Numbered from the stretch's first letter, positions 3,244 to 44,412 are shown. The stretch: DNA of 56,336 nucleotides from Patescibacteria group bacterium (GCA_041662585.1 JBAZSG010000003.1:99011-155346), one strand, 5' to 3'. The notes: generated by a model not told the origin, from the letters alone. A program made the numbers and translations.

Positions 3244-3753
3244 ATGAGAGTACCCATTAGAAAAGGTGGACAATATACCAATATGAAAGACGATCCTGTC
3301 ATGACTCAGGGCAAATTTGATGAACTCAAAAAAACTTTAGAAAAGCTAAAAAAAGACATTCAACCTAAAATGGCTGAAGAAGTAAAAAGACTAGCTTTGA
3401 TGGGTGATTTTTCAGAAAATGCAGCTTATCAAATAGCCAAAGGAAGACTTCGTTTTACCAATTCTAAAATAGAAAATATCACCAAGCAAATTGCCGAAGC
3501 AAATATTATCAAGATCAACAAAAATAAAAATGTTATTGAAATTGGTAGCTTGGTGACTGTAAAAATAGATCAAGAAATAAAAAAATATCATATTTTGGGT
3601 TCCTCAGAAACAGATCCTAGCAAAGGTAAGATTTCTTATCAATCGCCTTTGGGTGCAGCTTTTTTAAATAAAAAAATTGATGAAATTGTTGAAATAAAAA
3701 TAAATGGACAAATAACTAAGTACCAAATAATAGCTATAGACTATCAAATTTGA
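3244..3753 (+). CDS. greA: transcription elongation factor GreA-family paralog with N-terminal extension
   Basis: The Gre coiled-coil tip GDFSENAAY retains the acidic D/E pair. The C-terminal domain carries GSSETDPSKGKISYQSPLGAAFLNKK. TATAAT lies 9 nt upstream of the ATG, so the mRNA may be leaderless. Confidence 0.8.
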   Translation: MRVPIRKGGQYTNMKDDPVMTQGKFDELKKTLEKLKKDIQPKMAEEVKRLALMGDFSENAAYQIAKGRLRFTNSKIENITKQIAEANIIKINKNKNVIEIGSLVTVKIDQEIKKYHILGSSETDPSKGKISYQSPLGAAFLNKKIDEIVEIKINGQITKYQIIAIDYQI

Positions 3754-11698: not shown

Positions 11699-13441
11699 TT
11701 AAAATTTTACAACTTCACCCGGATTCAATTTTTGGGCATTATTATTTTTATTATTAATATTTGTGACTATTGTCTCATTGTTTTTTTGTGCTAATTCTTC
11801 AGCCTTTTTTTCTTGGGCAGGAGTTATTTTTTTAACACTTATTTTTCTCCCTTTCAAAGCTTCAGCCAAAGAAGTAAATTCTTCTTCCTTACCACTATCG
11901 CTTATTATCCTAATACTAGATGGTGGTGGCACTTTACCAGCTCGAGATAAATCCAAACATTCTCGACAATAAATAGGCTTCGTTGGATCTGGTTCAAAAT
12001 TTATCTTGGTGTGTTTTCCACAAAGATCACAATTTACATCTTTGGAAATACCAGTAGCTTTTTTATTATTTTTTGCTTTTCTTTTTGTAGTATTAGTAGC
12101 TGTTTTTTTATTTACCACTATTTCTTCTGTATTGCTCATTTTACTTATATCATCTTCACCTCTACCTTCAGACCAACGAATAATTTTGTCTTCTATTATT
12201 TCTCTTGGTTTAGCATATCTTTCACGAGTAACACTTATAATTTTATCTTTGACGCCAGCTACTTCTTCACTAAGTGGTACTGGTGCTAAGGTATTGGCAG
12301 AAAATGCTTCAGAAGTAACACCATCAATCATTAATTTAATATAAATTTGAAATTTAGAAAGATTTACCAAATCTTCCTGAGTAAAAGTTGGAAAAAATTC
12401 CTTTTCCAAAAATTCTGCATCAGCAGCTCCTACTCTAAAAGCCACCAAGGTACCAACATTGCCAAATACTGCTGCTTGGATATTTTCTTCAACTTGTTCT
12501 ATGTATTGATGAGCTATAATAAGATTTAATCTATATTTTCTAGCTTCAGATAATATATTAGCAAAAGAATCTGTGGCAAAGTTTTGAAACTCATCAACGT
12601 ATAGATAAAAATCTTTTCTTTCTTCTTCTGGTGTATCTACTCGACTCATAGCTGCAAGTTGAATTTTGGTAATCATCATAGCTCCTAATAAGGCTGAATT
12701 GTCTTCACCTACCCTACCTTTGGAAAGATTCAACAATAATATTTTTTGATTATCCATGATATCTCTCATGGAAAAAGATGAATTTACCTGCCCCAATATA
12801 TTTCTGATTAAAGCTGAAGAAAGAAATCTTCCAACTTTGTTTTGAATAGGAGCTATAGCTTCAGCCTGAAAACGATCAGGATATTTACTATATTCTTCTA
12901 ACCAAAAAGCCTTTACTACTGGATCAGACAAATTTTCGACTACTCTTTTTCTAAAATTTTTGTCGGTCAACATCCTCATAATACCAAGTAAAGTAGAGCC
13001 AGGATATTCTAGTAAAGCTGAAATAGCGTGATGAAGTACATATTCTAGTCTTGGTCCCCAAGAATCAGCCCAAATCTTCTGAAATACACCAATAAGTCCA
13101 GAAACAACTAAATGTCTTTGACTAGAATCCACTTGTTCTAAAACATTAAAACCAATGGGAAAATCTAAATCTGAAGGATTAAAATAGATTACCTCATTTA
13201 TACGATCTCTTGGTACAAAATTTATAATTTTTTCTACCAAATCACCGTGAGGATCTACTACACAAACACCCTTGCCGTCTTGAATATCTTGAATAATCAT
13301 GTTTTCCAGTACTGTAGATTTACCCATGCCAGTTTTACCAATAAAATACATATGGCGACGTCGATCGTCAACTTTTATTCCAAAACGAACATTGGAATTT
13401 CTATAGTTTGTTTCAGCAAAAATTGTAATTTTATTATCCAT
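11699..13441 (-). CDS. TraG/VirD4-like (T4CP-type) P-loop ATPase with C-terminal CxxC-x17-CxxC zinc ribbon and Lys-rich tail
   Basis: Walker A GKTGMGKS, Walker B FYLYVDEFQNF, and RKYRLNLIIAHQY (TraG-D_C-like). The zinc ribbon is CDLCGKHTKINFEPDPTKPIYCREC. It is a paralog of the C-half of 27339-29792. Confidence 0.75.
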   Translation of the reverse strand: MDNKITIFAETNYRNSNVRFGIKVDDRRRHMYFIGKTGMGKSTVLENMIIQDIQDGKGVCVVDPHGDLVEKIINFVPRDRINEVIYFNPSDLDFPIGFNVLEQVDSSQRHLVVSGLIGVFQKIWADSWGPRLEYVLHHAISALLEYPGSTLLGIMRMLTDKNFRKRVVENLSDPVVKAFWLEEYSKYPDRFQAEAIAPIQNKVGRFLSSALIRNILGQVNSSFSMRDIMDNQKILLLNLSKGRVGEDNSALLGAMMITKIQLAAMSRVDTPEEERKDFYLYVDEFQNFATDSFANILSEARKYRLNLIIAHQYIEQVEENIQAAVFGNVGTLVAFRVGAADAEFLEKEFFPTFTQEDLVNLSKFQIYIKLMIDGVTSEAFSANTLAPVPLSEEVAGVKDKIISVTRERYAKPREIIEDKIIRWSEGRGEDDISKMSNTEEIVVNKKTATNTTKRKAKNNKKATGISKDVNCDLCGKHTKINFEPDPTKPIYCRECLDLSRAGKVPPPSSIRIISDSGKEEEFTSLAEALKGRKISVKKITPAQEKKAEELAQKNNETIVTNINNKNNNAQKLNPGEVVKF

Positions 13442-13443
13442 AT

Positions 13444-14934
13444 TTAAGCTATTGGTAAATTAGGTGGTGCCTGATCTTTATGAGTAGAAGAATGGCTGGT
13501 CTTGGTAGCTGTTTTTGCAAAACGTTCCTCAAAATGTTTGTCTGATAAATCTACATTAAAATTTGGCGTGAGTAGTTGTCTACTCAAATCTTTTTCAATT
13601 TCCTCTTTATCTATATCACCTGCTTTTGAAATAGGCAATGAAGAAGGTGGCTCAGATTTTTTACTTTCCGTACGTTTAAGAAGAGGCGCTTTGATAAACT
13701 TACTTGGAAAATGCCAAATAGTAGCTAGCTCTTCGGTATTTAAAATATAATAATCATGCCCTCTGCTACCACTACGGCTTTTGTAACCAGCGACCAAATT
13801 TCTTCGACGTTTAGCCACTAAAGTTTTTATAAAAAAATAGTCAATCTTTGTTTTGGTTTTTTTGTCTGGTTTAAATGAATTAAGATCCATGGTATTAAAT
13901 TGTTTTATAGACCCAAAAACAGAAGAAAGAACTCTAGCTGGAGAATATAATTCATGGGGAGAAATATAAATCAAACGCATTTTACATTCAAAGCCAGTTT
14001 TGGAAGCTTTATTTTCTATCGCAGCTATAGCATCTTTTTCACCTGGAGTAAGATGAAGCATCATAGATGGCATATCTTCTTTGGTTTTAGAAGCATGAGA
14101 AGCACTAAGGTCTTGTGGCCAGATCATAGGTTCGCCAGTAGATAAGAAAAATAAACCAGTAATGGGATCCATAATTCTAGACAACCATGATTTTTTTGAT
14201 GCAAATTTCTTACCAGCTATTTTATAGGCTTCTTTCATACTTCTTTGTGGCCATTCAAAACCAGTGGGTTTAACTATAATTTGAATCCAAACTTGTTCGC
14301 CAATATATACCTTACTCATAGTCTCAAGCAGTGAGGCTATCGGATCTTTAAATTCTCCTGAAACAGCATCTTCAAAAGATGGATAAGTACGAATAGGATA
14401 AACATCATTTTTAGCCAATATAACTTCTGTACCCCAAATATTGTGAGTGTCGTTTGGAAAATCATCTGGCAAAGTACCTACATAATCTTCAACTTCTGTA
14501 ATCTCTGCATCTGGATATTGAGAATAAATAGAGCTTTCTATTATATCTCTTGATTGACTAGGAGTACGAATTAAAAATTGTACATAACCATCAATACTGA
14601 CTATTTCAAAAGAAAAACTAAGTTGAAATCGCCCTTCTAAATAAATCTCTCTTAAATTGAGTGGATCATGAGCCCCTGAAATAGTAGAAAAAAGTTGTTC
14701 TACAGCCTTTGGTGTTTGCTCAGTATCTTTTGGTACATCTATAGCTAATATTACAAACTTATTGGTATTAAACCATTTTGTACTTTGATTTAAGTGCCAA
14801 ATCTCAAAAGAACCACGAGCAATTACATATAAAAACAAAATCCAACCCCCGCTTTTAAAGAGATACCAAGCTATAGCCAAGCTACCTTGATCCATAGCCG
14901 CATATAATGATGAAAAATCAAAAACTATTTCCAT
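13444..14934 (-). CDS. membrane protein homologous to the N-terminal half of the fused ATPase at 27339-29792
   Basis: N-terminal TM segments. FSFEIVSIDGYVQFLIRTP aligns with FSFEIVSMGGFINFYIATP. The gene ends ...APPNLPIA, 2 nt before the ATPase ATG. Confidence 0.7.
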   Translation of the reverse strand: MEIVFDFSSLYAAMDQGSLAIAWYLFKSGGWILFLYVIARGSFEIWHLNQSTKWFNTNKFVILAIDVPKDTEQTPKAVEQLFSTISGAHDPLNLREIYLEGRFQLSFSFEIVSIDGYVQFLIRTPSQSRDIIESSIYSQYPDAEITEVEDYVGTLPDDFPNDTHNIWGTEVILAKNDVYPIRTYPSFEDAVSGEFKDPIASLLETMSKVYIGEQVWIQIIVKPTGFEWPQRSMKEAYKIAGKKFASKKSWLSRIMDPITGLFFLSTGEPMIWPQDLSASHASKTKEDMPSMMLHLTPGEKDAIAAIENKASKTGFECKMRLIYISPHELYSPARVLSSVFGSIKQFNTMDLNSFKPDKKTKTKIDYFFIKTLVAKRRRNLVAGYKSRSGSRGHDYYILNTEELATIWHFPSKFIKAPLLKRTESKKSEPPSSLPISKAGDIDKEEIEKDLSRQLLTPNFNVDLSDKHFEERFAKTATKTSHSSTHKDQAPPNLPIA

Positions 14935-15051: not shown

Positions 15052-16155
15052 TTATTCACTTTTCAATGAGTAACGGCCTTTTTCATCTCTAGAAAATCTA
15101 TCTTTATTCATGAGGGCTAGAGTAATAGTAGTTTCTTTGATCATACGTTTTTCAAGCACAGCCTTGGTAATTTCTTTTTTGGTCAATGCTTTGTCACTAT
15201 CGCGCAAAATATCAGCTATTACATCAGCTACTACACCTGGTTTATAACCCCATTCTTTTAAGGCATAAATACCACGACCAACTAAAACATATTTTTTATC
15301 CAAAATTAATTCATTGTGAATGGTAGCCGGATAAGCTTTACGATGATCAAAAGACATTTGATTGATAGTATCAGCAATTTCAGTAAAATGCATAGGAGCA
15401 CCATTTTTTTTCAATACTAAATATATTTTGTCATTCATCCTACGGGGAGTGATATTTGACCATTCTACTAAACCCCATTCTTCATAGGGATTTGATTTCA
15501 ATTTTTTACTTACGCTAATAAAGTTTATTACTACTCTATCAGTTAATTTATCATTACTAGTATAAAATTCAGCCTCTTCAATCTTGCTTATCAGTTCTTC
15601 CAAACTTAGGGCATTGCCATGATTTTCTATCAAATTTCGTATATTATCTATAGTTTCTTGAAATAAGTCTATATTGGCTTCGGGAGTTTTCCAAAAACCA
15701 TTGTAATGTTTTGATTCTTTTACAAAATAAAATCGATGATTCAAAAGTTGATTTAATATAAATCTAATAGCAGACTTATTTTCTTCTGATGAACCAGGAA
15801 TCATTAGTAATTCGTTTATTAAATTAACTTCAGACATCAAACCACCATGCTCAGATAATGTAGCGTTGGCTATATCTTCAATCTCTTTTAATATAGTTTG
15901 ATTGAAGCTTTTATTTATCTTTTTCAGAGAAGTGTTTTCAATTTGTCTAATTCTCTCACGAGTAACATCGTACTGTTTGCCGATGTCTTCAAGAGTCTTT
16001 TTTTCCAAACCAGACAAGCCATGACGCATTTTTATAATTTCTTGCTCACGCTCTGATAAAGCAGTCAAAATATTGATGAGAGTTTGATGAGGATCAAAAT
16101 CTGATAGTTTTGACAAATGTTTTGATGTAATTACTTGATCTAAAATTCCAGACAT
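15052..16155 (-). CDS. sigma-70 region 4-like HTH protein with C-terminal HARE-HTH/winged-helix domains
   Basis: SEREQEIIKMRHGL...TLEDIGKQYDVTRERIRQIENTSLKKI is sigma region 4. IYLVLKKNGAPMHFTEIADTI...GRGIYALKEWGY is HARE-HTH-like. Confidence 0.65.
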   Translation of the reverse strand: MSGILDQVITSKHLSKLSDFDPHQTLINILTALSEREQEIIKMRHGLSGLEKKTLEDIGKQYDVTRERIRQIENTSLKKINKSFNQTILKEIEDIANATLSEHGGLMSEVNLINELLMIPGSSEENKSAIRFILNQLLNHRFYFVKESKHYNGFWKTPEANIDLFQETIDNIRNLIENHGNALSLEELISKIEEAEFYTSNDKLTDRVVINFISVSKKLKSNPYEEWGLVEWSNITPRRMNDKIYLVLKKNGAPMHFTEIADTINQMSFDHRKAYPATIHNELILDKKYVLVGRGIYALKEWGYKPGVVADVIADILRDSDKALTKKEITKAVLEKRMIKETTITLALMNKDRFSRDEKGRYSLKSE

Positions 16156-17210: not shown

Positions 17211-18878
17211 TTATTCTTTTGCTTTTTTTACTCCAAATAAACCAAGTTTACCTTCTAAACGTTTGTTGACTATCAAACGTAAAAAAGTTCTAGTGACTGT
17301 AATAGCTGAAAACATAGAAATAAATATTCCAATACCAAGTGTAATGGCAAAACCCCTAATAATAGAACTACCAAACCAAGTCAAAATTAAGCAAGTTATA
17401 ATAGATGAAATATTGGAGTCTTTGATAGAAGGCCAAGCTCGTATAAAACCATTTTCTATAGCGGTATTAAGACTTTTACCTTTGCGTAACTCTTCTTTGG
17501 TACGCTCAAAAATCAATATATTAGCATCTACAGCCATACCAATAGACAATATAAACCCAGCTACACCAGCCAAAGTCATAGTAACTGGCACTATTTCAAA
17601 TACCGCTAAGTTTAATATGGCATAAATAAACAAAGCTATAACTGACAAAATACCTGGTAGCCTATAAAAAATAAGCATAAATAATGCAGCAGCCAACAAT
17701 CCAATAATACCAGCTAACAAGCTTTTGTTTACTGAATCTTCTCCCAAACTAGCACCAACCGTGGTTTGGCCAATAAGCTCTATTGGTACAGGTAAAGCTC
17801 CCAAATTTAAATTTTTAATCAACTCTTTGGCTTCGGTAATAGTAAAATTACCTGAAATTTGAGCTTCTCCGTCTTTGATTGGCTCATTTACTATAGGACT
17901 AGAAATAAGCTCGCCATCCAAAAATATTCCGATTGGTTTACCAACATTTTCTGTAGTTAATTTTGCAAAAATATCTTTACCATTGTCATTGAAAGATAAC
18001 AAAACCAATGGAGATTGCGTGTTTTGTTGAAAGCTAAGCTGAGCTTTGGCTACTTCGCGACCACTCAAAGCAGTATTGTCCCAAACAATATCAACTAAGT
18101 CTGCATTATCTTTTTGAAATAAAATATGAGCTGAATGTACTTCAATTTCTCCTTGTTCGTTCAATCTTTGATCTATCTTTTTGATAATATGATACCCAAA
18201 TTGAGATTCTATCAACTCAGTATGTACTTGATCAACTTTAAAATTTTCATTAAAAAGAGCTTCGTCAAATTCTGGTACAAACAAACCCTTTGTTGTATAG
18301 CCCAAGTCTCCACCATTTACAGCTGAAGCTTGATCCTCACTATATTCACTGGCTAGTGTAGCAAAATCTTCACCAGCCAAAGCTCGGTCTAATATTTTTT
18401 GAGCCTGTATTTTAATTTCATCTACTGTATCTTCTGGAGTATCGGTAATTTCTGGAACACCTTGAGTTTTAAATTCTAGATGAGGTGTCTTATCGATAAT
18501 AGCAATGGCTTCATTGGCATCTTTAATACCAGCTAGTTCTACAATAATACGATAATTGTCTCCACTAAAATTGGTTTGTACTATTGGTTCGGAGACACCA
18601 TAAGCATTGACACGACGTTCAATCACATCTCGAAGAGCTTGTACTCCTTCTCTTTTTTCAGCTCCCTCCAAAGCTGAAACATCAGCTTGGTAGACAAGAT
18701 GAGTACCCCCTTGTAAATCAAGGCCTAAATGTACTTTAAAATTGCCAAACCAGCCAGGAGCACTGGGCCAAACTATTAGGGCGGCAAAAATAGATAATAA
18801 AAAAATAAAGCCAAAAGTAACTCTGGTTTTAGTAGCTGTTACTTGCCCTTTATTTGAGGTTTCACTGTATTTATTCAT
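17211..18878 (-). CDS. secD: protein translocase subunit SecD carrying an inserted parvulin-type PPIase domain
   Basis: SecD motifs LGLDLQGG, RVNAYGVSEPIVQ and IFLDGELISSPIV plus the C-terminal TM bundle. The insert at aa ~153-257 reads GEDFATLASEYSEDQASAVNGGDLGY...VPEFDEALF...SQFGYHIIKK...HSAHILF. Confidence 0.9.
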   Translation of the reverse strand: MNKYSETSNKGQVTATKTRVTFGFIFLLSIFAALIVWPSAPGWFGNFKVHLGLDLQGGTHLVYQADVSALEGAEKREGVQALRDVIERRVNAYGVSEPIVQTNFSGDNYRIIVELAGIKDANEAIAIIDKTPHLEFKTQGVPEITDTPEDTVDEIKIQAQKILDRALAGEDFATLASEYSEDQASAVNGGDLGYTTKGLFVPEFDEALFNENFKVDQVHTELIESQFGYHIIKKIDQRLNEQGEIEVHSAHILFQKDNADLVDIVWDNTALSGREVAKAQLSFQQNTQSPLVLLSFNDNGKDIFAKLTTENVGKPIGIFLDGELISSPIVNEPIKDGEAQISGNFTITEAKELIKNLNLGALPVPIELIGQTTVGASLGEDSVNKSLLAGIIGLLAAALFMLIFYRLPGILSVIALFIYAILNLAVFEIVPVTMTLAGVAGFILSIGMAVDANILIFERTKEELRKGKSLNTAIENGFIRAWPSIKDSNISSIITCLILTWFGSSIIRGFAITLGIGIFISMFSAITVTRTFLRLIVNKRLEGKLGLFGVKKAKE

Positions 18879-20745: not shown

Positions 20746-22815
20746 TTATAAATCCAAATCATTGACTTTTTCCCAGTCAGTTTCATTTAAAACTGCTATA
20801 TAATCATCAGCTAATATATACATATAGTCACCAAGATAAAGGGCTCTTTGGACATTTGGTACAGAAATAGCTCTAACCAATTCTAGATTATCATTGGCAT
20901 AAGAGAATATATAACCTCCGTTGTAAGATGGCAAGAAAAATACTTCATGATTTGGATCTTGTAAGAAAGCATGATGATTATATAAAACATCGCTACCGTA
21001 TTCAGCTAAAGAATATTTGGCTATTTCTTGTGGGTTGCTAGGATTTGAAACATCAAAATAAGAAAGTTTTACTTGACCGTTTTCCATACCAATCCCTAAA
21101 ATTTTATTTTCAGATATTGGGTGCAAATATGATGAATAACCAGGAATTTTCAATTCACCAACCATTTTTGGATTTTTTGGACTAGATAAATCCAATACAT
21201 AAAATGGATCAGTTTGTCTAAAAGTAACCAAATAACCCAAATCACCAATAAAACGGACAGCATAGATACGCTCACTAAGTCCCAAGTCCAAAATAGAACC
21301 TTGTATTTTTAAGTTATCATCAAGGATATAAACATCGTTGGCTTGGCTATCACTGGCAGATATACCCCATCTCCAACTCTCACCAATCGTAGTAGCCACT
21401 CTAAGATTACCATCAAACTCATCCATAGAAAATTGATTGAGTAAATAACCTGGCACACTAGTATTGGCTGTTATTTTAAAATTATTTATATCAATTTTGG
21501 CAATACCAGTACTGACAATAAGTCTTTTATTTTTTTCATAATAATTTTCAGCTCTATTTTGCATGTCATTTTCCAATTTGAGCATTTGGTCTTTATCTAA
21601 AGATTGCATCCACTCATCAAGTATGGTCTGTAATTCATTGAACTTTGAACTACTACTAATATCATAAGTACTAAGTTTGTTTAATCTAACTAACAAATTA
21701 GCTGGAATATAATCCTTCATCTCTGTGCTGACAAAATCAAACATAAAATCAAACATATCTACATTTTGTGTATAAGCTATGTACAAAGCCTCTTTTGACA
21801 TATAAATATTAGAGGTATTTTGATCACCCACAAAAGAAATTTTGTTATCCAAATTTCCTGACTTTGGATCTAAAATAATAGCTGTAAAAGTAGAATTTAC
21901 TTGTGTGGCAACACTTGGATAGTATATATCTCCACACGGTACAATCATAGTTTCACCCTGACGTATAAAAGGAGTTATTGGGCAAGGATTATATCTGTTT
22001 ATGCTGGTTTGAGTAACTAAATATACTTTATTATTATAAAGTCTAGAAGTCACCAAATATGTGTCATCATCCAATTTTATATCCCATTTTTTAGTTACTT
22101 CTTTTGGATTTGAAACATCATAGGCTACTATATTTTGTCCAGAAAATACCATCAAAATATTGTCTGCCAAAAGTAAATCACCAGTCAAATCAATCTCTGA
22201 ACTTAAAGCCAAATCACTTGGAGGCCAAGCATTTATAATATTTGTTTTATTATTATTTACAAATTCTGGTGCCAAACTTGTACCTTCAAAATCATCTTCA
22301 AACGTTACATCCATACGTACCGGAGTATCAATCCAATATCTACCTATATTATCTGAAAAATAAATTTGACTACCATCTGTTTTTACAATATCTGCTTCAT
22401 CAATGCCAGCTACCTGTACATTTGTATCTGATATTCTATCTGGAGCCCCTCCACCGCCAATGCCTATTTCTTTTGAAATACTCTCTGAATTGCCTAATGC
22501 AAAATCCATAGCATCATCTGTCATCATAGTTGGTTGAGCCAAAGTTCTACTAACGCCCATACCCATACCATAATAGGCCACTTGATCCATATCTTCTATA
22601 TATTCTCTAAATTCATCAACTGAAGTAAATTTTTTAAGGGTATTATTTTGAGTAAGTTTTTTGCTTATAGGCTTTAAATTTAGATAAGCCAAATTATCTG
22701 GCCTATCAATTTGTGATATAATAAATACCAAAGCAACTGCTGAAAATAATATTAAAACCACCAAATAAACTGGTGTAAAACCAAAGCTTGTATTTTTTTG
22801 TTTTACTTTTTTCAT
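20746..22815 (-). CDS. membrane-anchored beta-propeller domain protein (Beta_propel/PF09826-like)
   Basis: N-terminal TM helix. The C-terminal signature is IYAVRFIGDLGYLVTFRQTDPFYVLDLSSPKNPKMVGELKIPGYSSYLHP. Confidence 0.7.
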   Translation of the reverse strand: MKKVKQKNTSFGFTPVYLVVLILFSAVALVFIISQIDRPDNLAYLNLKPISKKLTQNNTLKKFTSVDEFREYIEDMDQVAYYGMGMGVSRTLAQPTMMTDDAMDFALGNSESISKEIGIGGGGAPDRISDTNVQVAGIDEADIVKTDGSQIYFSDNIGRYWIDTPVRMDVTFEDDFEGTSLAPEFVNNNKTNIINAWPPSDLALSSEIDLTGDLLLADNILMVFSGQNIVAYDVSNPKEVTKKWDIKLDDDTYLVTSRLYNNKVYLVTQTSINRYNPCPITPFIRQGETMIVPCGDIYYPSVATQVNSTFTAIILDPKSGNLDNKISFVGDQNTSNIYMSKEALYIAYTQNVDMFDFMFDFVSTEMKDYIPANLLVRLNKLSTYDISSSSKFNELQTILDEWMQSLDKDQMLKLENDMQNRAENYYEKNKRLIVSTGIAKIDINNFKITANTSVPGYLLNQFSMDEFDGNLRVATTIGESWRWGISASDSQANDVYILDDNLKIQGSILDLGLSERIYAVRFIGDLGYLVTFRQTDPFYVLDLSSPKNPKMVGELKIPGYSSYLHPISENKILGIGMENGQVKLSYFDVSNPSNPQEIAKYSLAEYGSDVLYNHHAFLQDPNHEVFFLPSYNGGYIFSYANDNLELVRAISVPNVQRALYLGDYMYILADDYIAVLNETDWEKVNDLDL

Positions 22816-23697: not shown

Positions 23698-24063
23698 TTA
23701 TACTGTCTGTTGAAATAGATTTAATATGACATATCTAGATATAGCATAAGCTGTAAGGACAATTACCAAACCAATTATGCCAGCCTGTATTAATTTTTTG
23801 GCCTCATCAATCTTATCAGAGCTTCCATAAGAAGTCATCCATTTGAAACCACCCCACAAAATGATAAGGGTTGTTAAAATACCCAAAAACCCTAAAATCA
23901 CATTTATAACTCCACCAATAGTATCTTCAAGTGGTCGTTGCCCTAAATTTACCTTTCCTTCAAGCTTATTATAGCCCCAATCATCTAAAGTCGGTCCAGC
24001 TGGTGCTTGAGCGTTAGCTATAGCCGGAAAGGCTAATAAAGCGAAAGTTAGTATTTTTTTCAT
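23698..24063 (-). CDS. TrbC/VirB2-like pilin-type small membrane protein, copy 3
   Basis: Signal peptide MKKILTFALLAFPAIANAQA, two TM helices, and the loop KWMTSYGSSDKIDEAKKLI. Confidence 0.7.
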   Translation of the reverse strand: MKKILTFALLAFPAIANAQAPAGPTLDDWGYNKLEGKVNLGQRPLEDTIGGVINVILGFLGILTTLIILWGGFKWMTSYGSSDKIDEAKKLIQAGIIGLVIVLTAYAISRYVILNLFQQTV

Positions 24064-24097
24064 GAATTTATAATTTATATAATAACTATATTATAAA

Positions 24098-24454
24098 TTA
24101 AGCTGTAGCTGTATAAAGTTCACTTAATACATATCTAGAGACAGCATAAGCTGTAAGCACAATCACCAAACCAATGACACCAGCGCCGATAAGTTTTTTG
24201 GCTTCATCAACTTTATCAGAACTTCCATAAGAAGTCATCCATTTGAAACCACCAAATAGAATGATAAGAGTAGTAAGTATACCCAAGAAACCCAAAATGA
24301 TATTTACCACACCACCGATAGTTTCTCTAAGATTTCTTGAGCCTAGAGCAATATCTGTGTCTGTAAAATCATTATATCCCCAAGCACCAAGATTTGCTTG
24401 AGCGTTAGCTATAGCTGGGAAGGCTAATAAAGCGAAAGTTAGTATTTTTTTCAT
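24098..24454 (-). CDS. TrbC/VirB2-like pilin-type small membrane protein, copy 2
   Basis: Same architecture as copy 3. The signal-peptide DNA is almost identical among the three copies. Confidence 0.7.
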   Translation of the reverse strand: MKKILTFALLAFPAIANAQANLGAWGYNDFTDTDIALGSRNLRETIGGVVNIILGFLGILTTLIILFGGFKWMTSYGSSDKVDEAKKLIGAGVIGLVIVLTAYAVSRYVLSELYTATA

Positions 24455-24483
24455 AGTATTTATGAATTACTAATTAATTAATT

Positions 24484-24511
24484 ATTATATCACTAAAGGA
24501 CTTTTTGTCAA
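24484..24511 (-). promoter_or_regulatory. promoter TTGACA-16 nt-TATAAT for pilin copy 2
   Basis: The minus strand has TTGACA (24511-24506) and TATAAT (24489-24484), 30 nt upstream of the ATG at 24454. Confidence 0.5.
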
Positions 24512-24527
24512 TAAATTATACATGATA

Positions 24528-24887
24528 TTAAGCTGTAGCATCATAAAGATTGCTTAATACAAATCTAGAAATAGCATAAGCTGTAAGCACAATCACCAAA
24601 CCAATAGCTCCTGCTACAACTACCGCTCTACCTTGCTCATTTTTTTCAGAGTTACCATAAGAAGTCATCATACTAAAACCTCCAAATAATATAGCAACAG
24701 TAGTAAGTATACCCAAGAAACCCAAAATGATATTTACCACACCACCGATAGTTTCTCTTAAAGGTCTGGATCCTAGAGTAATCCCAGTATCTGTAAAATC
24801 ATTATATCCCCATTCACCAAGATTTGCTTGAGCGTTAGCTATAGCTGGGAAGGCTAATAAAGCGAAAGTTAATATTTTTTTATACAT
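24528..24887 (-). CDS. TrbC/VirB2-like pilin-type small membrane protein, copy 1 (most divergent inter-TM loop)
   Basis: MYKKILTFALLAFPAIANAQA signal peptide and two TM helices. The loop is SMMTSYGNSEKNEQGRAVV. Confidence 0.7.
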   Translation of the reverse strand: MYKKILTFALLAFPAIANAQANLGEWGYNDFTDTGITLGSRPLRETIGGVVNIILGFLGILTTVAILFGGFSMMTSYGNSEKNEQGRAVVVAGAIGLVIVLTAYAISRFVLSNLYDATA

Positions 24888-25173: not shown

Positions 25174-26676
25174 TTAAAGCATCTCACCACCAAAAGTATC
25201 CAGTATTTCCCCTACTCCACTTTCACTTTTACCTTTAAAATTTTGGTGATTTTGTATATAGTTGGAATCGATCTCAAAACTCAAATCTATTTGTTTGGCT
25301 AATATATTACTAAAAGTGTTTATTAAATTTTGCTTTACCTCTGGCTTATCCAATTGTTCTTTATGAAAATCATATTCCAAGCCAATAATAAGTAAATTTT
25401 GTTCAATTGTCAAAGGATGACTAGTTTGTAGTATTGCCCCCAAACCATGATTTAGTGGTTTGGCATTTTCAACTACTTTTGACCAATTATTTTGTAATTT
25501 GCTTATATCTTGAGAATTTAAATTAATTTTTTTTTTATTATCTTCTGGAGATTGAATATCAATATTTTTTTGGACTACATTTTCTTTTTCGGCTAATAAA
25601 AACTCTACACAAGCCAATTCTAAAGGTAGCTGATCAATCATAGTTTCTTTGATTGATAATTTATCTAATATAATATTTAATAATTTAGCTATATCTTCTA
25701 ATAAAAAATCTGTAGCTTGTTTTTTGATAGCTTCGGTCAAAGCATCATCAAAATCAAGAACAAAACTAGGACCAATAATTTTATAGAGCATTATTTGTCT
25801 AATATAATCTATAAAATCAGCTATAAAGATACTAAAATCTACTCCCTCATCGACAAGTTTATTTATTTGATTTAAGGCGGTAGAAAGATTTTTGACTCTC
25901 AAGGCTTCGGTCAAAGCATCAATAGCCTGCCAATGACTATCTGGTAAAACCAAAGACGCCAACTCATCTGTTACTTTGTTTCCACTGATAGAAATAATTT
26001 GCCCAAACAATGACTCGGCATCTCTAAGACAACCTTCGCTACGACGAGCTATAATTGCTAAAATCTTTTCTGAAATTTGGACTTTTTCCCATTCAGCAAT
26101 TTCAGTCATTCTTTTAATAATATCTTTAATCGGTATTTTCTTAAAATCAAATCTTTGACAACGTGAAATAATAGTTTCTGGAACCTTGTGTATTTCGGTA
26201 GTAGCCAAAATAAAAATTACCTTCTTGGGTGGTTCTTCCAAAGTTTTTAATAATGCATTGAAGGCTGATTTAGAAAGCATATGCACTTCATCAATGATAA
26301 AAACCTTATAACCATTGTTATTAAAAGGAGGAATTTGAGAATTGGCAATAATATTGTCACGAACATTATCTACGCCAGTATTAGAAGCTGCATCAATCTC
26401 TATAATATCCATAGAACGATTGGCTAATATGGTTTTACAATTTTCACAATCATTACATGGTTCGTGTTCGCTATCTTTACGCTTGGTACAATTTAGTGAA
26501 CGAGCAAAAAGACGGGCCAAGGTAGTTTTACCGGTGCCCCGTGGTCCAACAAATAAATAAGCATGCGCCAAATTTCCGCTAGCTATTTCATTTTCTAGAG
26601 TAATTTTTATCGGCTTTTGACCGACGACCTCTTTGAAAATTTTTGGTCGATATTTTCTATAGATAACTTCTGACAT
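25174..26676 (-). CDS. dnaX: DNA polymerase III subunit gamma/tau
   Basis: YRPKIFKEVVGQ, Walker A GPRGTGKTT, a Zn module CTKRKDSEHEPCNDCENC, DEVHML and SRCQRFDF. Confidence 0.93.
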   Translation of the reverse strand: MSEVIYRKYRPKIFKEVVGQKPIKITLENEIASGNLAHAYLFVGPRGTGKTTLARLFARSLNCTKRKDSEHEPCNDCENCKTILANRSMDIIEIDAASNTGVDNVRDNIIANSQIPPFNNNGYKVFIIDEVHMLSKSAFNALLKTLEEPPKKVIFILATTEIHKVPETIISRCQRFDFKKIPIKDIIKRMTEIAEWEKVQISEKILAIIARRSEGCLRDAESLFGQIISISGNKVTDELASLVLPDSHWQAIDALTEALRVKNLSTALNQINKLVDEGVDFSIFIADFIDYIRQIMLYKIIGPSFVLDFDDALTEAIKKQATDFLLEDIAKLLNIILDKLSIKETMIDQLPLELACVEFLLAEKENVVQKNIDIQSPEDNKKKINLNSQDISKLQNNWSKVVENAKPLNHGLGAILQTSHPLTIEQNLLIIGLEYDFHKEQLDKPEVKQNLINTFSNILAKQIDLSFEIDSNYIQNHQNFKGKSESGVGEILDTFGGEML

Positions 26677-26679
26677 AAA

Positions 26680-27264
26680 TTAAAGACTAAAATCAAGTTC
26701 GTCAGTAGAAATCCCTCTATTATTATTTTTAATTATATTTTCTACAGCGGCAAAATTGCTATCAGAATCTTTTGGTACCAATATCACAACTTCGTCACCT
26801 TCTTCACCTTTGAAATAAGTAACTGAAGCCATAAGTAATTTGTATATCCTATCTCCTGCCAAAACTACAAATTCATTAGTGCTTTTATCTTTAATAAGAT
26901 GTCCTACTAACCTATTTCTTTCTACTGGCGATATTTGTTTAAAAATAAATGAACCGTCTGCGCTTATGGTCAACTTTAGAATATCCCCTTCTACCAATTT
27001 TGATTTTGAAGCATAATTGGCTGGTACACTATATTGCTTACCGTCTGGACCAATCATAATTTGTCCATTAAATATTCCCTCAACTACCAAGCCTTCATCA
27101 CCATCTATCTGCTTGCCCACTCGAGCAGCTTTAAGGCTATAATTGACAGCGTCAGAAGAACTTCTGCCTGTCAGCTCCCCTAAAACCTGCTTGGTTTTGG
27201 TAAGTTCTAATTCTAAATTATATACTAAAGCTTCCAAATCTTTTATTTTTTTTGCTTGTGACAT
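26680..27264 (-). CDS. hypothetical protein (N-terminal coiled coil, beta-rich C-domain)
   Basis: 194-aa ORF with ATG start, 3 nt upstream of dnaX. Contains the motif YSVPANYASKSKLVEGD. No family recognised. Confidence 0.6.
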   Translation of the reverse strand: MSQAKKIKDLEALVYNLELELTKTKQVLGELTGRSSSDAVNYSLKAARVGKQIDGDEGLVVEGIFNGQIMIGPDGKQYSVPANYASKSKLVEGDILKLTISADGSFIFKQISPVERNRLVGHLIKDKSTNEFVVLAGDRIYKLLMASVTYFKGEEGDEVVILVPKDSDSNFAAVENIIKNNNRGISTDELDFSL

Positions 27265-27338: not shown

Positions 27339-29792
27339 TTAAACAATAGCCATTCTTTGTTTGATTTCATTTTCAACTATATTCTTATCTCGACCATATT
27401 TTAAACGTGATAATTCTTTAATTGCCTGAGCTAATTCATAGTTACCTTTTTCTGGTAATATAGGATTAAAATTAAAAGCTGGTGGATTTTGATTATCTAT
27501 CAATAACTTTACATAACAAGTATATTTGGGCATATTGACCAAATCATACTCACTTACTACTGGTGCCATTTGTTTGGCTATCACCTCAGCATCCTCTACT
27601 CCGATTCTATAAGAAATAAGTGTACCGACGTTGCCAAAAACAGCATCCCTGACACTAGTATTTCCACCCTTGGTTAACTGTGCTAAGTATTGATGAGCTA
27701 ATATTAAATTGAGTTTATATTTTCTAGCCTCTGATAATATAATAGCAATACTATCGGTAATATAATTTTGAAACTCATCAATATACAAATAAAAATCTTG
27801 CCTATTTTCTTCTGCTATATCTACTCTACTAAGAGCAGCAAATAATATTTTACCAATGGCAATCATACCTAAAAGACTAGAATTCATTTCTCCAATTTTT
27901 CCTTTTGATAGATTAATAATAATAATCTTATTTTCATCCATCACCTTTCTAAAATTGAAAGCTGATTTTGTCTGAGAAATTATCGGTCTAATAGTATCAT
28001 TGGAAATAAAAGGTGTCAGCTTACTAGTAATATAAGGAACCATATTTGCCAAAGCTGCATCACCACCTGCTTTTTGAGCTTCTTTTTCCCAAAAATCTTT
28101 TACTAAATAATTTTTTACTTTGGCTAGTTTTTGTTTTCTATACGCTTCGTCTGCCAAAACTTTTGGGATTTCCAATAAAGTAGCTGGATTTTCTTTATCA
28201 TCCATCAAAAGCAACATGGTATTTCTCATGTATTGTTCAAACATCGGACCACCAGTAGCTTTGAGATCATAAAGTTTATCAAAAATAGCTATCATTTCAT
28301 TGATTACAAAACTTTTTTGTTCGTCGGTTTCAAACTCCAACATATTGATACCCATTGGTCTATTTATATCAGCAGGGTCAAAAAATATCACATCTTCAGC
28401 TCTTTCTTTTGGTACATGAGATAATACTGTTTCTGCCAAATCTCCATGGGGATCCAAAACACAAACACCTTTTCCATTTTGAATATCTTGAATAATCATA
28501 CTTTCCAAAAAAACTGATTTACCAGTACCAGTTTGTCCAATCTCATACATATGTCGTCTCCGATCGGCATCTTTAATACGAACCAAAGTTTCTTTACCAC
28601 GATATATACTCTTACCTAGTATAATACCTTCCTTTGGCATATTAGCTGGTGGTGCAGATTTTACAGCTTCTAACCAATTTATATTTGGAGTTTCAGTAGT
28701 AGCTAGTGGCAAATGAACTACAGAAGTCATTTCTTCAGAATTTAAAAGCATACTATTTTTGGACAAAAGATGACGATAAATAAAATGCTCTATATAGCTA
28801 TCCCCCTTGCTTGGAATATTGGCTTTAAAGCTGTTGCCAAATTCATAAATATTATACTGCGTATAAGAATTTAAAATATCTTTTAAAATAAGCTCTGATT
28901 TATCAGGACTTGGAGTAGATACCACTACTCTAATATTAACATCTAAACCAGATTTGGCTGTTTTCTCTTCCATACTTTTAGCACGTTCTTGCTCCATGGC
29001 AGACATAGCTGGTTGTTCTTGTTTTTCTTGATTGGGCTTATCTTTATTTGTAGTGCTTAAAAAACTAGCAAAAAACTTGAAAACTTTGCTTAAATTACCC
29101 CAAAAACCACCTCCTCCCATCTTAGCCAAAGCATCTTTATAGGCCATGCCAGTATACATGTATTTGGCTATTTGTTTGCCCCTAGCATGCCATTTTTTAG
29201 GAGCTGAACGAAAGACATATTGTACAGCCGCTCCTTCTTCTGATTGCAATTTACTAAGAGAATTGGTAATAGATTCTAATGGGTCATTTTCAAAATATTT
29301 ATAAGTTTTTATTGGCAAACTATAATCATTACTAAAACTAAGTGCCCCCACTTTGATATATCCTTGAGCTTGAAAAATATTATAATCATTGGCTTCTTCA
29401 AAATATATTTTTGGATAAACTGCTTGTAATTGTTGAATCAAAAAATCACGATAAATTCTAGGAGTGGCTATATAAAAATTGATAAAACCACCCATTGAGA
29501 CAATCTCAAAAGAAAAAACATCTGTTCGTTTAGCTAAAAACCTTTTTTGAACTTTGAGTCCACTAAGTGCGGAAAATAAATTTTCTACCTGCCCCAACTG
29601 AGCCTGAACAAATTCTTTGCTTTGTTGTTCTTTATCGTTTTTAGTATACTTTGGAACTTTTAATAATAATATTTCTAACTCAAGATTTTTGTTTGCTTGT
29701 CCACTAAAATGACCAAAAATAAAATATATCAAAATTATCAAAAAAATAATCCCAATCATTACAGCTATAGTTATTATCATAAAATCACTCAT
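27339..29792 (-). CDS. fused membrane N-domain + TraG/VirD4-like (T4CP-type) P-loop ATPase
   Basis: N-terminal TM helix, then a domain homologous to 13444-14934, then an ATPase half homologous to 11699-13441. ATPase motifs are GQTGTGKS, FYLYIDEFQNY and RKYKLNLILAHQY. Confidence 0.8.
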   Translation of the reverse strand: MSDFMIITIAVMIGIIFLIILIYFIFGHFSGQANKNLELEILLLKVPKYTKNDKEQQSKEFVQAQLGQVENLFSALSGLKVQKRFLAKRTDVFSFEIVSMGGFINFYIATPRIYRDFLIQQLQAVYPKIYFEEANDYNIFQAQGYIKVGALSFSNDYSLPIKTYKYFENDPLESITNSLSKLQSEEGAAVQYVFRSAPKKWHARGKQIAKYMYTGMAYKDALAKMGGGGFWGNLSKVFKFFASFLSTTNKDKPNQEKQEQPAMSAMEQERAKSMEEKTAKSGLDVNIRVVVSTPSPDKSELILKDILNSYTQYNIYEFGNSFKANIPSKGDSYIEHFIYRHLLSKNSMLLNSEEMTSVVHLPLATTETPNINWLEAVKSAPPANMPKEGIILGKSIYRGKETLVRIKDADRRRHMYEIGQTGTGKSVFLESMIIQDIQNGKGVCVLDPHGDLAETVLSHVPKERAEDVIFFDPADINRPMGINMLEFETDEQKSFVINEMIAIFDKLYDLKATGGPMFEQYMRNTMLLLMDDKENPATLLEIPKVLADEAYRKQKLAKVKNYLVKDFWEKEAQKAGGDAALANMVPYITSKLTPFISNDTIRPIISQTKSAFNFRKVMDENKIIIINLSKGKIGEMNSSLLGMIAIGKILFAALSRVDIAEENRQDFYLYIDEFQNYITDSIAIILSEARKYKLNLILAHQYLAQLTKGGNTSVRDAVFGNVGTLISYRIGVEDAEVIAKQMAPVVSEYDLVNMPKYTCYVKLLIDNQNPPAFNFNPILPEKGNYELAQAIKELSRLKYGRDKNIVENEIKQRMAIV

Positions 29793-30271
29793 TTTTGATT
29801 GATTTTTAATATTTTATCTGTTTTTATTTTTGCTTCTTGCTCTAAATAATATTTATTTACTTTTGGTATTATACGAAGCCATTCTAAAATAAGCTTGGTA
29901 ATTTCTCCAACTTTTATTTTGGCTTCGAGTAACAAAATGGTAATTTTAGTGGACACTTCTTCGCCTTTCAATTTAAAAATTCTTTGTGTACCAGCATCCA
30001 AAGATAAAAAAACAATATCCATACCATCTGATAATATATTTTCAACTTTTTTATGTATTATTTCACTAGTAGCTGGCTGTACTTTTTGAGCTTTATCATT
30101 GACTATAGCTACTTGAGCTGCTATTTGATCATCATCTAACTTTTCTTTACTTAAAAATTCTGTACTCTGCTCAATTTTTGTAGAATCTAAAATTTTTTCT
30201 GGTGATTGTTCACTAGAATTTGCTTGTTCAGGACTAATATTTATTTGTTCTATTTTTGGATCTTGAACCAT
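29789..30271 (-). CDS. hypothetical protein (acidic, low-complexity N-half)
   Basis: 160-aa ORF whose stop overlaps the ATPase start (ATGA, 4-nt overlap). Confidence 0.55.
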   Translation of the reverse strand: MVQDPKIEQINISPEQANSSEQSPEKILDSTKIEQSTEFLSKEKLDDDQIAAQVAIVNDKAQKVQPATSEIIHKKVENILSDGMDIVFLSLDAGTQRIFKLKGEEVSTKITILLLEAKIKVGEITKLILEWLRIIPKVNKYYLEQEAKIKTDKILKINQK

Positions 30272-30290
30272 GGCTATATTATACCAGATT

Positions 30291-30731
30291 TTAATGTTTT
30301 ATGTAAGAATTTAATTTATCAAATAACTTATCCACAAAATCAATTGATGATAAATAATACTTTTTATTTTTAGAAACAATAATGACGCTATTTTTATGTT
30401 TGTATACTTTATCAATATCTAAAAACCTAATAAAGCCTAGTGCTTTATAATCTGTACTTGAAATAGCTTTTAGATAAATCAGTCGTATATTTGTTAATAA
30501 ATAAATATTTTTTTGAGTAATAAGTTGTTTAATTAATAACACTATCAATAAAATTATCCAAAATACCCATAATATAAGGCCCTGATAACCAATATGCCAC
30601 ATTGGAAAAAGCATAAAAAAGGCCAATAAAAAAAGCAGAATGATAAAATATACTCCTGCCGAGCTTTTTTTTGATTTAAAAACCATTTTAAGGTCTTCCC
30701 GATTAATCAAAAATTTGCTAAAATTATCCAT
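30291..30731 (-). CDS. hypothetical membrane protein, two TM helices plus bPH (YdbS-like) type C-domain
   Basis: The track start 30752 is TTG, so I trimmed it to ATG 30731. The TM hairpin is followed by IYLLTNIRLIYLKA... Confidence 0.5.
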   Translation of the reverse strand: MDNFSKFLINREDLKMVFKSKKSSAGVYFIILLFLLAFFMLFPMWHIGYQGLILWVFWIILLIVLLIKQLITQKNIYLLTNIRLIYLKAISSTDYKALGFIRFLDIDKVYKHKNSVIIVSKNKKYYLSSIDFVDKLFDKLNSYIKH

Positions 30732-30832
30732 GTTATGAATAAAAAAACTCAAAAAATAATCCTAATTATACTATCAGTGTTTATAATATTTTCGATGGTA
30801 TTATTGACGTTTTTTGCTGGTGGACAATCTTA

Positions 30833-36612: not shown

Positions 36613-36630
36613 ATTTGATATCAAGCTATA

Positions 36631-43953: not shown

Positions 43954-44412
43954 TTATTGAATTTCTAAAATTTTACATTTTATTTTACCATTTGGTAAAT
44001 CTATTTCTATTTCATCATTTACTGCTTTGCCCATCAAAGCTACTCCAAAAGGTGATTCTAATGAAATCTTACCTTGTACTGGATCTGCTTCTGTTGAGCC
44101 AACAATAGTAAAATTCATATTTTGGCCATCTCTATTAATCTTCACCTGTGATCCGACTTGGACAATACCATTATTTTTTACAGTTTCAACTACAGCTGAT
44201 GTTTTTATCAAATGTTCCAATTCTAAAATACGGCCTTCAATAAAAGACTGGTCTTCTTTGGCTTCTTGATATTCAGCGTTTTCTGATAAATCACCCAATT
44301 CTTTGGCTGATTTTATTCTATCAGATATTTGAGGTCTTTTTTCAGTCTTTAAATACTCCAATTCTTCTTTGAGTTTGGCAAGACCTTCTTTGGTTAATAC
44401 CTTGTTATCCAT
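43954..44412 (-). CDS. greA: transcription elongation factor GreA (canonical length)
   Basis: LGDLSENAEYQEAKEDQ tip and GSTEADPVQGKISLESPFGVALMGK in the C-domain. Confidence 0.9.
   Translation of the reverse strand: MDNKVLTKEGLAKLKEELEYLKTEKRPQISDRIKSAKELGDLSENAEYQEAKEDQSFIEGRILELEHLIKTSAVVETVKNNGIVQVGSQVKINRDGQNMNFTIVGSTEADPVQGKISLESPFGVALMGKAVNDEIEIDLPNGKIKCKILEIQ

Follow-up and report, generated by a model that had tools for sequence, protein, structure and literature searches.

Organization of genes A, B and F

The DNA analysed here is a stretch of 56,336 nucleotides, referred to below as the window, from a Patescibacteria group bacterium (GCA_041662585.1, JBAZSG010000003.1:99011-155346). 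Among its genes are two collinear versions of a two-module protein in which a DUF8128 half precedes an ATPase of the VirD4/TrwB type: a fused gene of 817 amino acids (F), and a split pair consisting of an N-terminal half of 496 amino acids (A) followed by an ATPase half of 580 amino acids (B). An earlier note, made from the sequence alone, had given coordinates and lengths for these three open reading frames (ORFs), all on the minus strand, and these proved exact (Table 1).

The homology and collinearity of the fused and split forms, which that note had proposed from an alignment by eye, were borne out in two ways. Using BLASTP, residues 41-386 of F align with residues 62-434 of A (27% identity, E = 2e-27) and residues 391-810 with residues 7-420 of B (45% identity, E = 8e-120), and all of the peptide pairs originally quoted fall inside these alignments. 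As judged by sequence profile, the collinearity is reproduced independently with the phage family phrog_5156 (824 positions), on which F falls at 68-806, A at 42-362 and B at 391-806. The junction of A and B reads TAA, AT, ATG, which leaves 2 nt between the stop codon of the former and the start codon of the latter. A and B are the gene-fission form of the two-module protein, and F is its single-chain form. Taken together, the statements made here on the identity and evolution of F and A-B are held with high confidence.

Table 1. Coordinates of genes A, B and F, their domains and motifs, and the conserved neighbouring genes
Feature	Position	Strand	Description
F	27339-29792	minus	ORF, 817 aa; N-terminal membrane helix, DUF8128 and VirD4/TrwB-type ATPase
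F hydrophobic N-terminal helix (predicted membrane anchor)	29703-29786	minus	residues 3-30; Kyte-Doolittle segment 1-33; helix 3-30 in the model
F DUF8128 alpha/beta domain	28713-29678	minus	residues 39-360
F linker motif PPANMP	28635-28652	minus	residues 381-386, a few residues ahead of the ATPase
F ATPase	27342-28625	minus	residues 390-817
F Walker A GQTGTGKS	28515-28538	minus	
F all-alpha insertion	about 27933-28325	minus	
F Walker B YLYIDEF	27771-27791	minus	
F AHQY	27687-27698	minus	
A	13444-14934	minus	ORF, 496 aa; N-terminal helix, DUF8128 core (13675-14757) and disordered tail
A C-terminal motif PPNLP	13453-13467	minus	residues 490-494, two residues from the stop; proposed (inferred) docking role
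B	11699-13441	minus	ORF, 580 aa; VirD4/TrwB-type ATPase (residues 1-420) and 160-residue Lys-rich tail
B Walker A GKTGMGKS	13316-13339	minus	
B Walker B YLYVDEF	12587-12607	minus	
B AHQY	12503-12514	minus	
B zinc finger, treble-clef CxxC-x17-CxxC	11957-12031	minus	residues 471-495; PF23477 / TIGR04272
Sigma-70 region 4 and RNA polymerase delta-type HARE-HTH protein (sigma-r4/HARE-HTH)	15052-16155	minus	367 aa; Pfam; TIGR04567 (43.5, cut-off 42); PDB sigma region 4
p160	29789-30271	minus	160 aa; stop overlaps the start of F by 4 nt
p194	26680-27264	minus	194 aa; between F and dnaX
dnaX (DNA polymerase III tau/gamma)	25174-26676	minus	conserved downstream neighbour of the F module

Two paralogue lineages

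Homologs of the standalone N-half number at least 3,690 and those of the fused protein at least 5,153, and a profile search returned 5,276 clusters at 50% identity. Eighty metagenome loci centred on standalone homologs, with 38-85% identity to A, were collected, and in none of them (0/80) was the fused arrangement found. In 65 of the 73 loci that could be evaluated, the next gene after A on that strand is a homolog of B; of the other seven, four end too soon downstream and in three A runs off the contig. The commonest spacing between the two genes is 1-6 nt (29/65, by a start-codon heuristic), and overlaps of 4 nt were also seen.

Against relatives, the ratio of nonsynonymous to synonymous substitution rates (dN/dS) was 0.11-0.24 for A, 0.12-0.16 for B and 0.07-0.21 for F, with 0.08-0.15 for DnaX as a control; dS is near saturation, and these values are approximate. 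A, B and F are under purifying selection like DnaX. Among 147 diverse representatives, a sample biased toward A-like sequences, architecture and N-domain subfamily went together, all 143 standalone proteins being A-like and all four fused proteins F-like. Three assemblies have F and A-B on one contig, at distances of 8, 12 and 20 kb, and for six further pairs of A and F matches the longest contig is of the same size. The earlier description of one system encoded twice stands as regards the two collinear versions; F and A-B are, rather, ancient paralogue lineages, both chromosomal, maintained and widely conserved in Patescibacteria, each with its own neighbourhood, and not a recent duplicate.

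The PPxNLP motif at the linker and the tail

In F a proline-rich motif lies in the linker between the two halves, and A ends in a motif of the same kind. BLAST aligned 'SAPPANMP' of F to the internal 'SEPPSSLP' of A (427-434) and not to the terminal 'QAPPNLPIA', but the pairing with the terminal motif, made by eye in the first reading of the sequence, is favoured over that of BLAST by family-wide motif counts. P-x-N-L-P followed by one to four terminal residues is present in 51 of 52 standalone homologs, and PPxN[LM]P (in one case the variant PPMEMP) stands some 10 residues ahead of the ATPase half in 11 of 16 fused homologs. The PxNLP tail was also found in 70 of 77 standalone proteins from the metagenome loci, and the PPxNLP motif in 101 of the 143 standalone proteins among the diverse representatives. 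The split coincides, as had been supposed, with the homologous linker, the gene break falling directly after the conserved PPxNLP motif. Since the terminal motif of A is the equivalent of the F linker, A has an extra segment of about 55 residues leading from the folded domain to the motif.

In the AlphaFold2 (AF2) model of F the linker blocks (361-390) are ordered, with a predicted local distance difference test (pLDDT) score of 85-91, and in A modelled alone the tail peptide is disordered (pLDDT < 50). PPxNLP at the extreme C-terminus is kept family-wide, including loci without an adjoining B. The tail of A is proposed to dock B because the equivalent peptide is ordered as a linker in F, disordered in A alone and conserved C-terminally. 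Eight loci (L121, L123, L128, L130, L131, L134, L146 and L155) have kept the PPxNLP tail and show no ATPase gene within 1.3-6 kb, which indicates that the A and B genes are unlinked in some lineages.

The ATPase half

The Walker A, Walker B and AHQY motifs are intact in both B and F and are invariant in the F-family alignment. The Pfam families matched by F are T4SS-DNA_transf, TrwB_AAD_bind, TraG-D_C and DUF87. PF10412 scored 48.3 bits with B and 31.7 bits with F (cut-off 20.5), PF02534 scored 35.9 bits with F (cut-off 20.1), and PF12696 was also above its cut-off. Using hhalign, the motor profile matched TrwB with 95.6% probability over 263 columns, against 15% for TrwK (VirB4), where only 28 P-loop columns were aligned; TrwB was the sole PDB entry found by sequence for this half. 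The AF2 model of F (pLDDT 85.8) superimposes on TrwB in Foldseek with a template modelling (TM) score of 0.69 by target and a root mean square deviation (rmsd) of 4.5 Å over about 435 columns, versus a TM of about 0.3 for TrwK, and it places a helical block at about residues 490-620, between Walker A and Walker B.

Pfam, hhalign and Foldseek thus agree with the TraG/VirD4-like character that the earlier note had recognised in this half, and by sequence profile and structure model it is of the coupling-protein (VirD4/TrwB) type within the FtsK-HerA superfamily. The NCBIfam cut-offs for TraD and VirD4 were not reached (best score 50.6 against 366 bits for TIGR03743; 33.9 against 250 for the CD1115 family), and neither FtsK_SpoIIIE (PF01580) nor the gamma domain gave a Pfam match at E <= 0.01. 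No hydrophobic segment was found in B. Its zinc finger is present in 34 of 49 complete homologs.

The N-terminal half

As predicted from sequence and models, the N-half consists of one N-terminal helix followed by a soluble alpha/beta domain of about 350 residues. The helix is strongly hydrophobic in the F family (median Kyte-Doolittle value, KD, 3.03) and less so in the A family (median 1.76-1.97). The precomputed PF26449 (DUF8128) tag is carried by the F product itself and by all listed homologs of A and F; the assignment of A rests on the tags of its homologs. Scans with NCBIfam and with a Pfam copy without the PF26449 model gave no match to this half. Of the 'membrane N-domain' in the earlier note, therefore, the single N-terminal helix survives, and the remainder is soluble DUF8128 (PF26449), which was already catalogued.

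The AF2 model of A (pLDDT 78) was compared with the PDB using Foldseek. The top 14 matches were all to TrwK, the VirB4 protein of R388 (7O42, 7O43, 8RTB, 8RTD; E 5.8e-5 to 1.5e-2), with a probability of 1.00 for the first 13 and 0.84 for the fourteenth, and the later ones were not significant; the TM is only 0.30-0.35 and the rmsd about 10 Å. The full-length model of F also had its best Foldseek E-values to TrwK (E = 8e-15, about 920 alignment columns).

In profile searches the A family found nothing in the PDB at E <= 1, and hhalign comparisons of DUF8128 with TrwK, TrsD and TrsE gave probabilities below 1%. Scores against TrwK and a 33-sequence profile of the VirB4 N-terminal domain (NTD) were 15-22, with 14-21 for column-shuffled controls, and PF03135 (CagE_TrbE_VirB) had no match in the Pfam scan. 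With profile comparisons at noise level, a sequence-level link of DUF8128 to VirB4, TrsD or TrsE was rejected; all profile tests being negative, the domain is, as the earlier note had found, unassignable by sequence to VirD4, TraG or VirB4. In its predicted fold DUF8128 is weakly VirB4-N-domain-like, a structural lead and not an established homology.

A near-invariant 'YPDAE' in A (residues 140-144, 14503-14517) recurs as 'YPDAE' in the N-domain of TrwK (residues 90-94), the Y-P being conserved in both the DUF8128 and TrwK families. It was considered as a signal of homology and rejected: it is insignificant by hhalign and absent with a broader profile, and is taken as chance.

Homologs in bacteriophages

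Using tblastn, F matches 41 phage records, 35 of which are Bacillus phages, and 18 records align with 80% or more of F (80-93%) at 19.6-24% identity. The phrog_5156 profile matches F with E = 2e-85. A hidden Markov model (HMM) of the N-domain recovers phage G gp156 (E = 5e-28) and proteins of D6E, PBC5 and 055SW001 (1e-13 to 3e-15), and among viral proteins (BFVD) the DUF8128 structure model has far better matches than TrwK, in Bacillus phage G gp156 (E = 7e-18), phage JL (5e-16) and phage Slash (3e-13). By these sequence comparisons the DUF8128-plus-motor architecture is common to Bacillus phage proteins, and the view that the apparatus is lineage-specific had to be given up, fused homologs being found in Bacillus phages also. 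Neither an N-terminal hydrophobic helix nor the PPxNLP motif was found in the phage proteins examined.

The phage homologs have DNA-related neighbours. That of 0105phi7-2 adjoins a ParA/RepA-type partition ATPase, that of D6E follows a 'partition protein', and those of PBC5 and 055SW001 head a module of Gam, single-strand-annealing, replisome-organiser and helicase genes. Five of the phage homologs were examined further. Every one is fused, and each gets its better score from the F-type N-domain HMM; the fused form is therefore probably the older, and A+B probably arose from it by fission.

Phage G gp155 and gp156 (L182, 3249-7391) are adjacent related proteins, gp156 being the fused DUF8128 and ATPase homolog. 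Gp155, a 549 amino acid protein noted by its depositor as 'VirB-like', resembles the DUF8128 model in structure less closely (E = 2e-7). It was considered as a standalone DUF8128 partner of gp156 and rejected, having Walker A and B motifs of its own.

Gene neighbourhood

In 55 of the 57 loci that extend far enough, the sigma-r4/HARE-HTH gene precedes A on the same strand, the median distance between the two being about 120 nt. The neighbourhood of F was counted in 80 GTDB species. A p160 homolog is directly upstream of F in 64 of 78 loci, and p194 (dN/dS 0.07-0.13) and dnaX are downstream in 55/80 and 67/80 species, respectively; LepA (8/80) and MurJ (7/80) occur near F in close relatives only. 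The conserved modules are sigma-r4/HARE-HTH, A and B on the one hand and p160, F, p194 and dnaX on the other, and neither is a type IV secretion system (T4SS) cluster. For p160 and p194 no relative was found in Pfam, NCBIfam, PHROG, PADLOC or the PDB. The conserved part of p160 is its C-terminal half, and its dN/dS is 0.29-0.42. Upstream of p160 lies p153 (30291-30752, minus strand), a two-helix membrane protein restricted to close relatives (8/80).

Three tandem pilin genes (23698-24887, minus strand) had been taken as part of the same apparatus. As pilin genes they are real (PF18895, T4SS_pilin; 38.8, 36.2 and 34.1 bits, cut-off 26.6), their scores with the NCBIfam Mbov_0395 pilin model being 33.5-34.8, under its cut-off of 40. 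The T4SS or pilus link is not conserved: pilins occur within 10 kb of F in 4 of the 80 species, all of them close relatives (>= 70% identity). The three have near-identical signal peptides MKKILTFALLAFPAIANAQA, pointing to a tandem duplication, or else a gene conversion, of recent date. In close relatives only, pilins lie between uppS and tRNA-Gln/dnaX, and one related locus (L175) has two of them at the same place.

Family scans of the window proteins, which covered most ORFs of at least 110 amino acids on the coding strand, revealed no VirB4, VirB6, VirB8, VirB1, relaxase or integrase family, in agreement with the earlier statement that VirB6, VirB8 and VirB1 are absent from the window. Neither a cluster of relaxase and DNA-transfer (Dtr) genes nor one of virB4 was found in the Pfam-annotated homologous loci.

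The window is a minus-strand run of housekeeping genes, among them guaA/guaB, mnmA, secDF, ddl, uppS, dnaX, lepA, murJ, mreBCD, a PBP2-type transpeptidase, frr, holB and recJ. Promoter-like sites between 11500 and 16400 are not enriched (31 versus 23.7 +/- 4.4), and no minus-strand terminator-like site was found between the sigma-r4/HARE-HTH gene, A, B and the next gene; this is compatible with co-transcription, though weak as evidence.

Several other genes of the window may be recorded. SecD (17211-18878, minus strand) has a PpiC/parvulin-type rotamase domain (PF13616/PF00639, residues about 147-237) inserted in its periplasmic region, an architecture also listed at the related loci L001, L174 and L176. 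There are two GreA-family paralogues (3244-3753, plus strand; 43954-44412, minus strand) and two MreB paralogues (42933-43946 and 47623-48675, both minus strand) in what is apparently a small genome. A DUF4012 protein of 812 amino acids (34186-36624, minus strand) adjoins MurJ and glycosyltransferases, and a Beta_propel (PF09826) protein of 689 amino acids (20746-22815, minus strand) lies between uppS and a methyltransferase gene.

Comparison with known systems

With type IV coupling proteins (T4CP; VirD4/TrwB/TraD/TraG) these proteins have in common a RecA-like nucleotide-binding domain with Walker A and B motifs, the all-alpha insertion, the ARKY...AHQ region and a tether in the form of an N-terminal hydrophobic segment. 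They differ in that F has one helix and the DUF8128 domain of some 350 residues where a T4CP usually has a two-helix membrane stub, in that F and A-B are without relaxase or Dtr genes and without conserved linkage to virB4 or mating-pair formation (Mpf) genes, in numbering about two per genome, of which one is split in two genes, and in the zinc-finger, Lys-rich tail of B as opposed to an acidic TraM-binding tail.

VirB4 (TrwK) is likewise a protein of two modules and similar size, with an N-terminal alpha/beta domain followed by an FtsK-HerA-type ATPase, and no other solved structure matches the DUF8128 model significantly (E = 6e-5 to 1e-3 and probability 1.0 for TrwK). No sequence or profile-profile signal linking DUF8128 to VirB4 was found, however, and no PF03135; the motor is nearer VirD4, and F and A-B are not encoded with VirB3, VirB6 or VirB8. 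The phage proteins, of unknown function (phage G gp156, 0105phi7-2 gp32, D6E gp23 and PBC5_050), have both modules in the fused order and in DNA-related contexts; they differ in lacking the helix and the PPxNLP motif, in their low identity, in that none is split and in their Bacillota hosts.

FtsK, SpoIIIE and SftA belong to the same ATPase superfamily and are membrane-tethered, chromosomal and housekeeping, and may serve as a functional analogy only. Bacillus subtilis offers in these proteins a precedent for two paralogous DNA translocases in one genome. Membership of the FtsK/SpoIIIE family is not supported, there being no PF01580 match, no match to the gamma domain that reads the FtsK-orienting polar sequences (KOPS), and at most one hydrophobic helix in place of the multi-pass membrane domain. 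In TrsD and TrsE of pGO1 the gene of an N-domain-like protein stands directly upstream of that of its ATPase, and TrsD has been described as remotely similar to the N-terminus of VirB4 (PMC12102498). DUF8128 has no detectable similarity to TrsD or TrsE, however, and TrsE keeps an N-domain of its own, which B does not. The HMM and structure searches returned no well-characterised system with a known role in which the proteins could be placed; such a placement would, according to the earlier note, have told against it.

Proposed function and alternatives

F and A-B may be T4SS-independent, membrane-tethered translocases that probably handle DNA, with the tail of A holding B, a reading in which we place moderate confidence. 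Each motor would, by analogy with TrwB, form a ring acting as an NTP-driven translocase at the cytoplasmic face of the membrane, where the N-terminal helix would hold it. On the cytoplasmic side DUF8128 would serve as the scaffold that links motor and membrane, placed where VirB4 has its N-terminal domain. In the split form the C-terminal PPxNLP tail of A, the counterpart of the ordered linker peptide in F, would bind the motor B and so hold it without a covalent link. The substrate would most likely be nucleic acid, the hints being the zinc finger and Lys-rich tail of B, the sigma-r4/HARE-HTH partner, the linkage to dnaX and the partition and replication contexts of the phage homologs.

These machines would most likely be independent of the canonical T4SS of Patescibacteria and act in DNA segregation, partition or transport linked to replication. 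Independence is suggested by the rarity of pilins near F (4/80), by the lack of any T4SS family among the window proteins scanned, by the counts of a 2025 survey (PMC12102498) and by the work of Wang 2023. In that survey 5,713 T4CP homologs were found in 2,918 of 3,035 Patescibacteria genomes (96%), about two per genome, and VirB4 in 2,417 of the 3,035 (80%), some 500 fewer than the T4CP homologs; 148 of the 5,713 lie near virB4, and in S. epibionticum, where the T4SS is essential, the T4CP homolog is dispensable (PMC12102498). Wang 2023 described an essential T4SS cluster without a recognisable coupling protein.

Several points weigh against this proposal. The substrate, the oligomeric state, the contact between A and B and the insertion into the membrane are all inferred, and the neighbourhood speaks through guilt by association: the sigma-r4/HARE-HTH protein may be an RNA polymerase factor, and dnaX, as a housekeeping gene, need not be functionally connected with F. 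The helix of A in the window is borderline (KD 1.49), the zinc finger is missing from 15 of 49 B homologs, A stands without an adjoining B in eight loci with at least 1.3 kb of downstream sequence, and the resemblance to the VirB4 NTD has a low TM and no profile-profile support. Moreover, 2.5 kb separates F from the pilins in this lineage, and the motor might just as well be docked by a VirB4-like N-domain on a T4SS platform encoded elsewhere in the genome.

The last point leads to the alternative that F and A-B are genuine type IV coupling proteins of a Patescibacteria T4SS or pilus, in which DUF8128 docks the motor on the VirB3/VirB6/VirB8 platform and the two paralogues differ in the substrates, protein or DNA, that they bring in to be exported to the host. 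The motor is unmistakably of the VirD4/TrwB type, VirB4 proteins are the only significant solved-structure matches of the N-domain model, and the three T4SS_pilin genes are near F both here and in close relatives, all of which would fit such a role, as would a VirB4 system in 80% of Patescibacteria genomes and the frequent encoding of t4cp genes apart from virB4 (PMC12102498). Set against this are the rarity of that pilin linkage across species, T4CP homologs that rarely lie near virB4 and are spread more widely than VirB4, and the dispensable homolog of S. epibionticum (PMC12102498). No relaxase was found among the window proteins scanned, and the conserved neighbours are of replication or transcription type. 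The same architecture, furthermore, occurs in phages, which are not known to have a T4SS. We regard the coupling-protein role, the chief alternative, as possible but on balance unlikely.

It is improbable that F and A-B are highly divergent VirB4-type assembly ATPases, which would extract pilins to build pili, the N-terminal helix mimicking a VirB3-VirB4 fusion and A+B resembling TrsD and TrsE of pGO1. TrwK does give the best Foldseek E-values for F and the top 14 PDB matches for A, the size and domain order are those of VirB4, and pilin genes lie nearby in this lineage. The ATPase half, however, is nearer TrwB than TrwK or TrsE by profile, and nearer TrwB also by structure; PF03135 is lacking, DUF8128 compares with the VirB4 NTD at noise level and shows no TrsD or TrsE signal, a canonical VirB4 is already present in most Patescibacteria, and the linkage to pilins is not conserved.

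A location of the genes in a mobile element, a prophage or an anti-phage defence island, and not in the core genome, is very unlikely. It is recommended by the phrog_5156 family and the 41 phage records with the same architecture, by weak PADLOC matches to mad8 and HerA (ATPase domain), and by B-like ATPases on seven viral contigs in IMG/VR. These seven putative viral contigs (L167-L173) carry B-like standalone ATPases with 40-63% identity to B in six and about 32% in L173, and no DUF8128 gene was detected near them. PADLOC returned, besides, matches of MzaA and PglW to sigma region 4 of the upstream protein, and nothing for A, p160, p194 or p153. Membership of a defence system was rejected because the PADLOC matches are limited to the ATPase domain and sigma region 4, and a viral or mobile origin because only seven of 2.9 million viral contigs match, in the ATPase half only and all without DUF8128, and the window is syntenic housekeeping DNA. 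Both loci lie within syntenic housekeeping genes (SecDF, dnaX, LepA, MurJ, MnmA) across many species, and the window scans found no integrase, relaxase or phage structural gene, the one tRNA gene not being beside such a marker.

The split pair might instead be a fused gene that was duplicated and has since broken or begun to decay, or the product of a frameshift in sequencing or assembly, of the kind that a gap of only 2 nt between A and B might suggest. This deserves practically no credence and was ruled out, since the two-gene arrangement recurs in separate assemblies and, at identities as low as 38%, in 65 independent loci from metagenomes, the dN/dS of A and B is comparable to that of DnaX, A ends in a motif peculiar to its family, B begins with a start codon of its own and carries a zinc-finger tail, the variable A-B spacing leaves no conserved frameshift or readthrough that could restore the fusion, and the N-domain of A is just 27% identical to that of F. 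The split copy, for which the earlier note had raised decay as a danger, is functional and no pseudogene.

To return to T4SS-independent translocases, a bolder version may be put forward, which we consider doubtful. DUF8128-T4CP would be a third branch of the VirB4/VirD4/FtsK radiation, not recognised before, and a living intermediate that has kept a VirB4-like N-terminal domain on a VirD4-like motor. The fused and split pair, near-universal in Patescibacteria, would pump DNA in connection with replication and without the T4SS, either to segregate it or to exchange it with the host, and the PPxNLP tail would be a new mechanism of docking in trans by which a split translocase is put together. 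If this were true, coupling proteins would have arisen from a two-domain VirB4-like ancestor.

Relation to previous work and significance

A considerable part of bacterial diversity belongs to the Patescibacteria, and in their reliance on host cells a central role is ascribed to the machinery for secretion and DNA transfer. DUF8128 was already known as a Pfam entry, and its fused members are annotated as 'type IV secretion system DNA-binding domain-containing protein'. Orphan T4CP homologs, about two per Patescibacteria genome, were reported in the 2025 survey, with exaptation suggested; the survey could not place the VirD4-like genes with a T4SS and left open their takeover for another function (PMC12102498). 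In the searchable literature no report was found of the fused and split paralogue pair or of fission at the PPxNLP motif, nor of the weak VirB4-like fold of DUF8128, the two gene modules or the homology to Bacillus phages.

If F and A-B are ordinary T4SS coupling proteins, the value of the finding would be smaller yet real, namely a coupling protein that carries its own VirB4-like domain for docking. The orphan VirD4-like genes of Patescibacteria gain an anatomy that comprises a fused and split pair, a DUF8128 module, a motif at the point of fission, two gene modules and phage homologs, and each conserved module pairs the ATPase with a DNA-binding or replication-related gene. The finding also bears on the relation of the VirB4 and VirD4 ATPases.

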